DNA of 64,000 nucleotides from a virus. Its lineage: Duplodnaviria > Caudoviricetes. Position 1 is the stretch's first letter. Each line of letters starts with the position of its first letter. Location: positions 32,001-96,000 of the IMG/VR virus record IMGVR_UViG_3300032053_000004. One strand, written 5' to 3'. This document shows positions 5,416 through 53,510 of the stretch, piece by piece. The position numbers were made by a program, and so were the translations under genes. The notes beneath the pieces are model-generated. The model was not told the origin of the DNA. It saw only the letters and a program-made list of their open reading frames with translations, and ran no database searches.

Positions 5416-5853
5416 ATGAAACCTTCTCAAGTCATTCAATCTTTACTTCATATGGCTTCAAAGCTTGAAGCTTCGTCTAACCCCGACCGGTCTTTAGTCA
5501 AAAAAGATTTGTTGAAAATAATTTCTTCTATTTCTCCTATCAAAACATCCGGGTATAGAAACCGAGGATGTCGTCCCGGAGGGAGTATTAATTTTACTAT
5601 TGATATTGAACGACCCGTAGACCCGAATGATCCTGATAGTGAGCTTGTTAGTACTGAAGTAGATATTGAAGCTGATATTTCCGATTATGATCCAGGTAGA
5701 ATTGATTGTGCCCCTGAAGATAGTTACCCTGAAGAGGGCGGGGATGTTGAGATTACTAGTATCACAGTTAATGGTGAACCATTTGAATTAACTGATGACG
5801 AATTCGAAAATGCGGTTTCAGAAGCCGGTTATAAATTCTCGAAACAACACTGA
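5416..5853 (+). CDS. KPSQV/SNPDR-leader protein with acidic payload
   Basis: MKPSQVIQSLLHMASKLEASSNPDRSLVKKDLLKII leader shared with 7302, 36905, 53010. Confidence 0.75.
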   Translation: MKPSQVIQSLLHMASKLEASSNPDRSLVKKDLLKIISSISPIKTSGYRNRGCRPGGSINFTIDIERPVDPNDPDSELVSTEVDIEADISDYDPGRIDCAPEDSYPEEGGDVEITSITVNGEPFELTDDEFENAVSEAGYKFSKQH

Positions 5854-6050
5854 AAAGTATTTGTTCGAATGTATGTCTAAAAACGTAGACGGTTGGAAGA
5901 ATTGTTCTTCGAAATCCACCATTTTCTACGCTCTTCCTCTTTCGCCTCCTAAAAAATTTCAACTATTCAGGAAAATCTGTACACATACAGATTTCCTCTT
6001 TTTCTTTAACTTCGGCCGGAGAATCGCTATAGAAAGTTATACTAGCAATT

Positions 6051-6115
6051 CTAGACGCTATCCTAGACGCTATCCTAGACGCTATCCTAGACGCTATTCT
6101 AGACGCTATCCTAGA
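6051..6115 (+). repeat. 12-bp tandem repeat CTAGACGCTATC x5 plus partial unit
   Basis: units at 6051, 6063, 6075, 6087 (one C>T), 6099; no spacers. Confidence 0.9.
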
Positions 6116-6125
6116 GAAATTCATA

Positions 6126-7043
6126 TCAGGGGCAATTCGGACCGATGGTCATAGCAATCACAGTATCGCCTGAACAGTTCCGGCCACCAAGACCATCGTC
6201 GTAGGCATAACCGTATGATGTTCCTTTACAGGCCTTATGAACGAGGTCTACAAACTTCGTCTTAGGAACCGGTCCCGCTTGACACTGTGGAGAACTGATC
6301 GGCGGCGTTGGACAGCAGTACATTTGTTCTACCGGACCAGTTGGCGCGTTTAAACCATCACCACCGAAACCGGGATAATTCAATTTCATGCAAGGCGAGA
6401 AGCACCCAGCGCTTCCCGTGGCCACGAGACTTTGATTTTTGTATGTCGGATTCGCTCCGCCATTCGATAAATCTTCGTCAGTCGGGCATTTTGCGAGACC
6501 CAAATCCTGACATTCCACAGGCTTGCAAGATGCCCGACCATCTCCACCGTGAGTTTCAATAGAGAATGGGAATGTATACCCGTCCACAGCACTGGAATTC
6601 CAGTATGTGTCTATCATCGACACGCCTTGGGGCGTTTTCCCGCATTGTTTTTTATCTGCTAAAGTGCATCCCCAAGTAGCTTCGAGCTTCGAATCGAGCG
6701 GAGGCGCGCATCCAGTCGGCGGGCATGGAGAGCTGGACTGTCCCATCATACAATTTTGACCAGTCGCATCGCACCCCTTCTTTGGCCAAAATCGCGTGCT
6801 GGCCAATCCTTCGGCGGGGATATCATAAGTAGTCATAGCGCCTGCTTTTACAAGCACAACACTAGGACCTGAAACGCCTTGTTGTTGAACCCATATATCA
6901 TATGAACAGGAATTCAAAACAGATAATCTGTTTTGAATTCCTCCTCTGTCTGAATTTGTCGATTTCGGGTCAGATACTGTTTTAGCTGAACATCCGGCCA
7001 AGAGCATCACAATGGCGATTTTAGAATATCTGAGATTTTTCAT
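6126..7043 (-). CDS. thaumatin-like (PR-5 family) lipoprotein
   Basis: lipobox LLAGC; N.CSY.IW, TRFWPK.GC, S.VDGY..P, GC.SPC, YCC, K.AC...YGYAYDD; many Cys. Confidence 0.88.
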   Translation of the reverse strand: MKNLRYSKIAIVMLLAGCSAKTVSDPKSTNSDRGGIQNRLSVLNSCSYDIWVQQQGVSGPSVVLVKAGAMTTYDIPAEGLASTRFWPKKGCDATGQNCMMGQSSSPCPPTGCAPPLDSKLEATWGCTLADKKQCGKTPQGVSMIDTYWNSSAVDGYTFPFSIETHGGDGRASCKPVECQDLGLAKCPTDEDLSNGGANPTYKNQSLVATGSAGCFSPCMKLNYPGFGGDGLNAPTGPVEQMYCCPTPPISSPQCQAGPVPKTKFVDLVHKACKGTSYGYAYDDGLGGRNCSGDTVIAMTIGPNCP

Positions 7044-7100
7044 ATTTTTTAGACGATATTAAGGATCCAATGATTAAAGTATTTATGAATTGCACCCAGC

Positions 7101-7274
7101 ATGAGAACTTACATAACTTTAGTCAGTCTCCTCTTTTGTGCTTGCAGTTCGTCGGAAGATGATAAAAAACCCGATGCCGGCGTGTCTAAAGACGCTGGAT
7201 CGATTTCCGACGCTGGATCGGATAGCTCAGACTCATCTATTTCGGTTGATGCCAAAATAGATTCTAAAGATTGA
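7101..7274 (+). CDS. 57-aa lipoprotein with DAG repeats (missing from ORF track)
   Basis: own translation: MRTYITLVSLLFCACSSSEDDKKPDAGVSKDAGSISDAGSDSSDSSISVDAKIDSKD*. Confidence 0.7.
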   Translation: MRTYITLVSLLFCACSSSEDDKKPDAGVSKDAGSISDAGSDSSDSSISVDAKIDSKD

Positions 7275-51858: not shown

Positions 51859-51866
51859 CATTTGAT

Positions 51867-52076
51867 ATGAGAGATATAGAAATACCAACATTTGAAGATA
51901 TTTATAACATCTCCCTTTTGGTTAAAAACGGATGGAAGCTTATTTTTGATGACAATTGGGAGCATCCTGAAAAATTAAAATATACTCCTAAAGACAAATG
52001 GGACTATAAAGGAGATGAAAGACCATCTCAAGATTACTGGCCTTATGAAGATGCTTTGGAAGAATTAAACAAATAG
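51867..52076 (+). CDS. hypothetical protein
   Basis: TAACAT 5 nt before ATG. Confidence 0.55.
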   Translation: MRDIEIPTFEDIYNISLLVKNGWKLIFDDNWEHPEKLKYTPKDKWDYKGDERPSQDYWPYEDALEELNK

Positions 52077-52217
52077 ATTGTTTTTTCAGTAGAGTTAAAA
52101 CGACGCTGTTGCTCTAGTTCAGCGTGATACCTATACAGAGAATTAAATCAGCTGCTCGGCTGAAACCCAGACCAATATTTACACAACGATCGGAAACCCC
52201 GATCAACTGGAGCATTC

Positions 52218-52985
52218 ATGTCCTCACACATTTTGATACAGAACCCTAGTGATATGTCCTCAAGATTTAGTACTCAGGACGGGCTCGGGCAGGAAGAATC
52301 TAACATTGAAGACGCTATGGGGGCTCTTATTGATCGGAGCCTAACCGTAAAAATTGAGGAGATTGATTATAAAAAATTAGAATTTGATGCAGTATCAAAA
52401 TACTTAGATAGAATTCCCGATAGAGAAGCCGATTTGATCCGGTTATATCATCGAGATAAGATGAAGCAAGAACAAATAGCAAGACTTTTTAGTATTACTC
52501 AAGCCGCCGTCTCTTATCGTTTACATCGTGGTATTAAGAGGATTCAATTTTTAAGGACTATTCCGGAACTTGATCAAGAAGAATTTGATGTTGATTTAGG
52601 CCATGTTTTTAATAATCAAGATCGAGAAATTCTTTGGCGGATGTATGAAACGACTTGTCAAAGTGAAATTGCTAAACAGATGGGTTTAACCCAAGGTCGG
52701 GTTCGTCATCGGTTTTTTAGGTCTTTGGCAAAGATAAAAGATCTTATTGCTGGCGAAGTTCGAGAAAAACAAACATATCTCGATGCCTTGAAAAAACATA
52801 ATAAGACGTCTGAGTACATTGAATCTGCTCAAACTGAACTTGATAATTGCATTGTAAATAGTAAATATGCTAGATATTATAGGGTATTCTTTGCCATTAG
52901 TGATAAACATTTCAACCTCTTACATGAGGTGAAATTTCCACAATTTGCTGATCGCGGCGACGCCCAGGTTTTGCCGATCGATTAA
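52218..52985 (+). CDS. protein with two tandem sigma70 region-4-like HTH domains
   Basis: QEQIARLFSITQAAVSYRL and QSEIAKQMGLTQGRVRHRF; GGAG RBS. Confidence 0.75.
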   Translation: MSSHILIQNPSDMSSRFSTQDGLGQEESNIEDAMGALIDRSLTVKIEEIDYKKLEFDAVSKYLDRIPDREADLIRLYHRDKMKQEQIARLFSITQAAVSYRLHRGIKRIQFLRTIPELDQEEFDVDLGHVFNNQDREILWRMYETTCQSEIAKQMGLTQGRVRHRFFRSLAKIKDLIAGEVREKQTYLDALKKHNKTSEYIESAQTELDNCIVNSKYARYYRVFFAISDKHFNLLHEVKFPQFADRGDAQVLPID

Positions 52986-53009
52986 ATTTTTTTTTGATTT
53001 TAAATTAAT

Positions 53010-53510
53010 ATGAAGCCTTCACAAGTCGCTATGGCTCTACGCCATATCGCTTCAGCTATTCAGGCTTCAAAGAATCCTGATCGAAAGCTTGTGGCCCGGG
53101 ATTTAAAGAAAATAATCTCGGTTTTATTAAACAAACCTAGAGAATTAGTTCACAAAAAATTTGTTGAAGCGTGGAAAAAGATCACGGAACCGTTCCGTGA
53201 TCTGGGTGTTAGCGACGAGCCTCTTTACACTGATCCTAAACAAATACCATCCTCAAAAAGAATAAAATATATTGACTTCGGGGATGGATTGGTATTTGTT
53301 TTAAAAGCCCAACCTGGAGTTTATGATAATAAAGATGAGTATAGTATTATATTAGATTTTATGAATCCTATCACTAAATCAGTTGAGCGAGTTTATACAG
53401 GTCCAAAGTGTACCTTGGGAATAACTAAAGATGAATTTGCTGAAATGGTAGACGCAGCATCTGATATTATGAATAATAATCAAAAAAATAAAGCATTTGA
53501 TATAAATTGA
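53010..53510 (+). CDS. KPSQV/SKNPDR-leader protein
   Basis: MKPSQVAMALRHIASAIQASKNPDRKLVARDLKKIISVLLNKP. Confidence 0.75.
   Translation: MKPSQVAMALRHIASAIQASKNPDRKLVARDLKKIISVLLNKPRELVHKKFVEAWKKITEPFRDLGVSDEPLYTDPKQIPSSKRIKYIDFGDGLVFVLKAQPGVYDNKDEYSIILDFMNPITKSVERVYTGPKCTLGITKDEFAEMVDAASDIMNNNQKNKAFDIN

Follow-up and report, generated by a model that had tools for sequence, protein, structure and literature searches.

The 64,000-nucleotide stretch analysed here (hereafter the window) comprises bases 32001-96000 of IMGVR_UViG_3300032053_000004, a 202,143-bp viral contig in IMG/VR that derives from sediment metagenomes and represents an uncultured phage at ~47% completeness; relatives carrying direct terminal repeats measure 362-436 kb, and the contig's virus is therefore a huge phage. 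Four genes of the window open with the same module of about 40 residues and continue into C-terminal parts (payloads) that are unrelated to one another (Table 1). The original prediction, made from the DNA alone, had described this arrangement as a dispersed cassette family, and translations and alignment bear it out: all four proteins begin with the motif M[KN]P[SV]QV...AS[KS]NPDR, 18 columns are invariant within the first 36 residues, and practically no conservation is left past about residue 40. The genes at 36905 and 53010, which as described lie after nrdJ and after the gene of a sigma-70 region-4 protein, agree at 25 of the 27 residues of the stretch IQASKNPDR.LVARDLKKIIS.LLNKP. The start of the third gene is set to 36905 because of the family alignment, by which the ATG at this position, and not the in-frame upstream ATG at 36875, appears to be the true start.

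A discrete domain under purifying selection

A 120-sequence alignment of the module has no gaps across 46 columns. Within it, M1, P3, A14, S20 and P23 are invariant, L10, I13, I17, L27, V28, D31 and L32 are nearly so, and the exposed turn S20-K-N-P23-D-R/K is almost invariant. Information content exceeds 2 bits at most positions up to residue 39 and is below 0.5 bit from residue 41; at the DNA level, identity between the closest pairs is down to background near nucleotide 125, and alignments of payload DNA score no higher than those of shuffled sequence. Between paralogues, codon positions 1 and 2 show a typical identity of 0.86-0.95, as opposed to 0.5-0.77 at position 3. This far greater divergence of the third codon position implies selection on the peptide; the module is a domain of its own, with purifying selection at the protein level.

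Conservation is also found immediately upstream, where the four genes carry a leader made of a T-tract and a short segment that directly precedes the ATG (Table 1). Of 10 family genes, 6 have a T-tract of at least 7 bases in the 30 nt before the start, as against none of 183 other genes (Fisher P=3e-9), and ~25-30 nt upstream are conserved within a close subgroup of module genes; a leader of this type also stands in the nearest relative contig, but not in distant relatives. Since leader and module are both conserved, the repeated unit amounts to ~150 bp (U-rich leader plus module), and this unit probably doubles as a homology patch for payload swapping. The subgroup conservation and the family specificity of the T-tract would be expected if the conserved entity acted as DNA or RNA, for instance as promoter, leader or site of recombination, and the peptide were its by-product; this explanation, however, is largely refuted by the codon-position pattern, and we consider it very improbable, the peptide being kept across 771 protein clusters despite differing upstream DNA, as well as in internal and C-terminal copies. 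Scans for sigma-70 promoters and terminators around the four genes gave no excess over shuffled sequence, or nothing 5' on the genes' own strand. The upstream regions had in addition been singled out for lacking Shine-Dalgarno sequences, an absence that is real but genome-wide in this phage and hence not peculiar to the family.

AlphaFold2 models the N-terminal part of P0004, the protein encoded at 53010, as a two-helix hairpin (helices 3-19 and 25-40, predicted local distance difference test score (pLDDT) ~87). Modules have a mean net charge of +5.3, and their hydrophobic stripe takes in a, d and e positions and is broader than a lone hairpin requires; in the predicted structure, the width of the stripe and the conserved exposed turn suggest a binding surface through which the module docks on something. 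Scans assigned the module to no family of Pfam, PHROG, NCBIfam or PDB. The PDB profile search returned only de novo designed coiled coils at chance level (E ~0.06), and fold searches with the model of a tandem-module protein (Foldseek against PDB) and with the P0004 model (a wide search) retrieved only bundles and hairpins of a generic helical kind, at E>0.1 and Z<=6.2. A single unnamed viral cluster at 0.77, found when P0004 was searched against an atlas, is uninformative. A J-domain was considered and rejected, as there is no DnaJ match at E<=1, J-domains are missing from the PDB profile matches at E<=10, and the turn reads NPD, not HPD.

A separate short motif, (K/R)IASR(I/V)A, is shared by several proteins that are otherwise unrelated and have it at or close to the N-terminus, and by head-cluster proteins, which contain it internally (window 1907, 2627, 3302, 5963-6124 on the minus strand, 39225 and 54758; genome 100025, 101021, 116795 and 164559), and one 53-residue open reading frame is largely (IASR)x6. 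Proteins with this motif are the top non-family matches of a sub-profile of module helix A, at E values (1.9-24) that are not significant.

Table 1. Module genes of the window with their parts and leaders, followed by other features; coordinates are window positions.
Feature	Position	Strand	Basis or remark
Gene with module copy 1 (P0001)	5416-5853	+	translation, alignment
Module copy 1 (P0001 residues 1-40)	5416..5535	+	hidden Markov model (HMM), E=3.4e-23
Payload 1	5536..5853	+	net charge -18; Asp/Glu/Pro-rich
Gene with module copy 2 (P0002)	7302-7748	+	translation, alignment
Module copy 2 (P0002)	7302..7421	+	HMM, E=9.9e-24
Payload 2	7422..7748	+	acidic, net charge -17; no family match
Gene with module copy 3 (P0003)	36905-37324	+	translation, alignment
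Module copy 3 (P0003 residues 11-50)	36905..37024	+	HMM, E=2.2e-25
Payload 3	37025..37324	+	net charge -4; no family match
Gene with module copy 4 (P0004)	53010-53510	+	translation, alignment
Module copy 4 (P0004)	53010..53129	+	HMM; AlphaFold2
Payload 4	53130..53510	+	third helix (residues 44-65), then low-confidence beta region
Family-specific leader of copy 4	52980..53009	+	T-tract, then GATTTTAAATTAAT directly 5' of ATG
Similar leaders of copies 1, 2 and 3	5386-5415, 7272-7301, 36875-36904	+	T-tracts weaker in first two
Marginal module-like stretch (P0005 residues 96-132)	22124..22234	+	hhalign only; NPDR turn deleted
Class II ribonucleotide reductase (nrdJ)	34058-36853
Sigma-70 region-4 protein	52218-52985
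Large terminase	60419-62359
Portal-like protein	from 62985
Split NAD-dependent ligase
UvsX-like recombinase
Exonuclease V/Dda-type helicase
Clamp loader

Copies, payloads and genomic setting

Searched against a six-frame translation of the contig, the module HMM recovers the four window copies at E=2e-26 to 3e-23, the next non-family match being at E=0.35. In total the contig holds 11 copies, more than the four first noticed: those of the window, six further N-terminal ones and a C-terminal one in P0157, a protein with acidic repeats. Dispersed copies, four to eight in each genome, are likewise present in all five large relatives that were profile-searched (four complete, one partial), and the profile, run over 1.8 billion representatives, matches 771 protein clusters at E<=0.001. 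By contrast, tblastn of P0004 against the 50,697 phage records of INPHARED gave no match at E<=1, T4-like phages included; a profile search of Bacillus phage G found no module; nor did a pattern scan, of limited sensitivity, of 185,579 representative prokaryote genomes. A search for longer module-bearing proteins with region 300-345 of P0027 returned two matches only, and a literature search for a comparable family described in huge phages yielded nothing relevant. The module is a real, widespread and previously undescribed portable unit that huge phages have on small acidic proteins of variable kind, and by its distribution it is specific to one clade of them.

The original prediction also placed a degenerate internal copy in 21839..22693, which is not confirmed: the module HMM has no match there at E<=10, and hhalign gives E=0.012 with a probability of 3.5%. 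The module-like stretch of P0005 listed in Table 1 is marginal and, as a module copy, unproven.

The payloads are extremely diverse, 163 family proteins falling into 116 BLAST payload groups of which 92 are singletons, and only two of them, with LRV repeats, have a Pfam family above threshold among the 149 representatives scanned. In the window, the C-terminal 'ITVNGEPFEL' region of payload 1 is similar to part of P0027, and for payload 4 the sole full-length relative is P0045. By eye, payload 2 resembled that of the module gene at genome position 161765; BLASTP found nothing, and the likeness was discarded. What the payloads share is composition: 97% are acidic, with a mean of -0.098 charge per residue, compared to 57% and -0.019 for the other 80-200-residue proteins of this phage. 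Basic tags go strictly together with acidic cargo, an unexplained rule.

Placement of the module is variable as well. Among the top 149 of the 771 clusters, it is N-terminal in 126, duplicated in 16, internal in 6 (several of which may be start miscalls) and C-terminal in one, and 85% of modules begin at Met1. There are also proteins of 47-59 residues that consist of the module only, and proteins of 88-103 residues in which two modules are joined by a Pro/Ala/Glu linker. A recurrent payload, KDHFPINSESQARNALSRANQY...SPPWYDG, is found between two modules and lysine runs in the relatives' proteins P0025, P0030, P0079 and P0099; it matches no Pfam family.

Two genomic neighbourhoods of module genes deserve description. 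In the first, the module gene at genome position 161765 lies directly 5' of an AAA+ unfoldase of the classical clade (FtsH, CDC48, PAN) with a single AAA domain, which is followed by a conserved 170-residue helical protein (P0158) and then by P0157 with its C-terminal module. A module is present in the corresponding downstream protein, 1-2.5 kb past the AAA gene, at 9 of 23 related AAA loci. P0158 itself was rejected as a divergent module (hhalign probability 0.3%). Elsewhere, inside a cluster of module genes at 146.9-150.4 kb of the genome, a dual-specificity protein phosphatase is encoded at 147945-148454 (DSPc, E=9e-9).

The second neighbourhood is the head operon. This phage encodes a head maturation protease, and eight relatives keep the order portal, proteins of 878, 170 and 235 residues, a variable slot, the maturation protease, an acidic protein of 412 residues, a protein of 222 residues and the major capsid protein. 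In relative G001 (locus L016), a genuine module gene fills the variable slot just 5' of the maturation protease, its start abutting the stop codon of the preceding head gene. The usual occupant of the slot starts with a stretch like helix A (NALYRIASELEAIDP...), the statistics of the match being weak (hhalign E=0.0058, probability 6%). The maturation protease gene is much longer in some relatives, with an open frame of up to at least 925 residues (L016:4808-6115, L057:7290-10064, L063:7463-11509), and the long frames contain a CFxxGT...-type insertion resembling an intein.

The remainder of the window has the gene content listed at the foot of Table 1. A GIY-YIG-type homing endonuclease (59661-60431) sits directly 5' of the large terminase gene, the two frames sharing a few base pairs at the terminase start. 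Beyond about window position 1500 the GC content is 33-42%, and Shine-Dalgarno sequences are missing from most genes. Window positions 1-1500 (genome 1-33,500) are unlike the rest of the contig, with ~53% GC and genes that have GGAGG ribosome-binding sites. Over the first ~33 kb of the contig, around 35 copies of a ~45-nt element precede genes on both strands, with the layout AAGCCGCAAGCC, ~13 nt, CGCGTATCGGG, 4 nt, GGAGG and then ATG; this part may have been joined to the rest near window position 1400-1520, either by chimeric assembly or as a block of foreign DNA. Past genome position 33,500, ~12% of genes (23 of 193) have a GTAAnnT motif 5' of the start codon, mostly at a distance of 12-13 nt, which is about 8x background; examples are at window 7763, 10353, 19660 (minus strand), 40052 and 48959. 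The motif, which occurs in none of the module genes, may be a promoter or translation-initiation signal of the phage.

Proposed docking and its possible destinations

From a discrete domain that recurs in several placements on more than 100 unrelated payloads, we infer a docking function: at about an even chance, in our estimate, the module is a docking tag that is retained and not cleaved. The basic hairpin of ~40 residues would then act autonomously and stay on the protein, its hydrophobic seam and invariant turn binding one common putative partner, and many unrelated small acidic proteins would thereby reach one place during infection.

Several points weigh against this reading or against its possible destination in the virion. 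To begin with, nucleic acid or a second copy of the module might be what a basic hairpin binds. In the former case it would bind DNA or RNA non-specifically and keep acidic domains attached to the genome of the phage or the nucleoid of its host, and it could even ride in with the DNA. A net charge of ~+5 and conserved R11, R12, K21, R25, R30, K33 and K34 are in keeping with such an anchor, as are payloads whose composition resembles that of DNA mimics; but the module resembles no known DNA-binding family, its invariant residues belong chiefly to the hydrophobic seam and the turn rather than to a basic face, and a strongly acidic payload fused to it would counteract DNA binding, so that we hold this to be improbable.

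In the latter case, hairpins would associate into four-helix bundles and gather their payloads into mixed oligomers, the tandem proteins representing a closed intrachain pair. Natural tandem-module proteins exist, and the AlphaFold2 model of one of them has four helices (pLDDT 76, predicted template modelling score (pTM) 0.57) and matches generic four-helix bundles only; the a/d/e stripe of helix A also recalls designed multi-helix coiled coils, in the chance-level match mentioned above. This model is, however, of moderate confidence, with a four-sequence alignment behind it, two copies of charge +5 should repel each other, and the invariance of the exposed turn would be left unexplained. Co-folding of two module copies scored 0.12 against a mark of 0.42, a result that counts neither way on binding. 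Altogether, self-association seems to us quite unlikely.

If the module is a docking tag, its leading destination is the virion, either the head interior or an ejection apparatus served by the AAA+ block, and acidic cargo would then enter the host along with the DNA; within the docking reading we give this somewhat less than an even chance, and an intracellular hub of phage or host is nearly as likely. The remaining counterpoints concern this choice: a module gene is found in only one of the eight head operons examined, the copies for the most part lie dispersed among genes of replication and accessory genes, and co-occurrence of the module with either of the two neighbourhoods is uninformative because all carriers belong to one clade. 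Head loading by a route other than that of T4 is possible, with contextual support from the head-operon copy of G001. A more specific version, in which the module is a transferable virion-loading tag in a clade of ~400-kb phages and possibly originated from the hairpin of a head-core protein, we regard as rather unlikely.

Should the module be such a virion-loading tag, any small acidic protein that bears it would be packed and then injected with the DNA, and each phage would possess a swappable set of pre-made effectors for host takeover or anti-defence; with the virion as destination, it would also provide a ready portable tag by which foreign proteins could be brought into the capsids of huge phages. 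More generally, huge phages encode hundreds of small proteins without assigned function, and the tag offers a handle on their sorting: its 40 residues mark one coherent set of probable effectors, and predict a common receptor.

Comparison with known systems

The original prediction likened the family to the internal proteins of phage T4 and proposed a modular head-loading domain with exchangeable injected effectors. In T4, basic internal proteins carry a capsid-targeting sequence as their 10 N-terminal residues, which attach to the scaffolding core and are cut off by gp21 (PMC9026906, PMC3012670), and the cargo is a polymorphic anti-defence protein delivered along with the DNA (PMC3012670, PMC9026906). 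In architecture the two agree, for IPI, IPII, IPIII and Alt likewise combine a conserved N-terminal tag with diverse small proteins in several copies per genome (PMC3012670, PMC9026906), and a T4-style propeptide, cleaved by the prohead protease so that anti-defence cargo can be injected, would suit a phage that has a maturation protease, a relative with a module gene in the head operon and modules that mostly begin at Met1.

The differences are nonetheless substantial. Instead of a 10-residue propeptide cut by gp21, the module is a predicted folded hairpin of 40 residues; no cleavage motif is conserved at or after its junction with the payload (residues 36-70 have neither the conserved Glu of an L/I-x-E prohead-protease site nor any other motif, and Glu is present at position 18 in only 36% of members); genuine C-terminal, internal and tandem copies exist; and the cargo is acidic, unlike the basic T4 internal proteins (PMC9026906). 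No payload has a function recognisable as anti-restriction or otherwise, and neither tblastn over the 50,697 phage records, which matched no T4-like phage, nor PHROGs detected a sequence relation to T4 proteins with a capsid-targeting sequence. Because the tag is folded, lacks a cleavage motif, has several placements and carries acidic cargo, a T4-style cleavable targeting peptide is not supported, and we think it improbable. What stands of the proposal is the portable module with its swappable, unrelated payloads; the comparison with T4 is one of analogous architecture, with no homology detected and with the mechanism, as put forward, unsupported.

A physical likeness is offered by the C-terminal coat-binding helix-turn-helix of the P22 scaffolding protein, a small basic hairpin that docks on the procapsid interior and has served as a carrier for packing foreign cargo inside capsids. 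The module, too, is a small basic helical hairpin in its AlphaFold2 model (net ~+5). The PDB profile search nevertheless revealed no sequence similarity between them, and fold searches stayed at the generic helical matches described above; moreover, P22 has its domain on a single scaffolding protein, whereas the module is on more than 100 types of cargo and its capsid binding is putative.

Extracellular contractile injection systems (PVC/Afp) couple N-terminal payload signals to an AAA ATPase, Pvc15/Afp15, in a contractile-tail particle, and here an AAA+ unfoldase adjoins two module proteins. In this phage, by contrast, the ATPase has a single AAA domain, the link between module and ATPase runs through one conserved neighbour protein at 9 of 23 loci, most copies are located elsewhere in the genome, and loading is conjectural.

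Finally, the MuF polymorphic toxins of temperate phages and the LXG and MIX proteins resemble the family in having a conserved N-terminal addressing domain and variable C-terminal modules. The module is far smaller than these domains, and its payloads are small and acidic, not enzymes, and of no recognisable function; neither MuF nor toxin families appeared when the four window proteins and 149 family representatives were scanned against Pfam. By these comparisons the module family is assigned to none of the T4 capsid-targeting sequences, the P22 hairpin, the signals of contractile injection systems or the MuF toxins.

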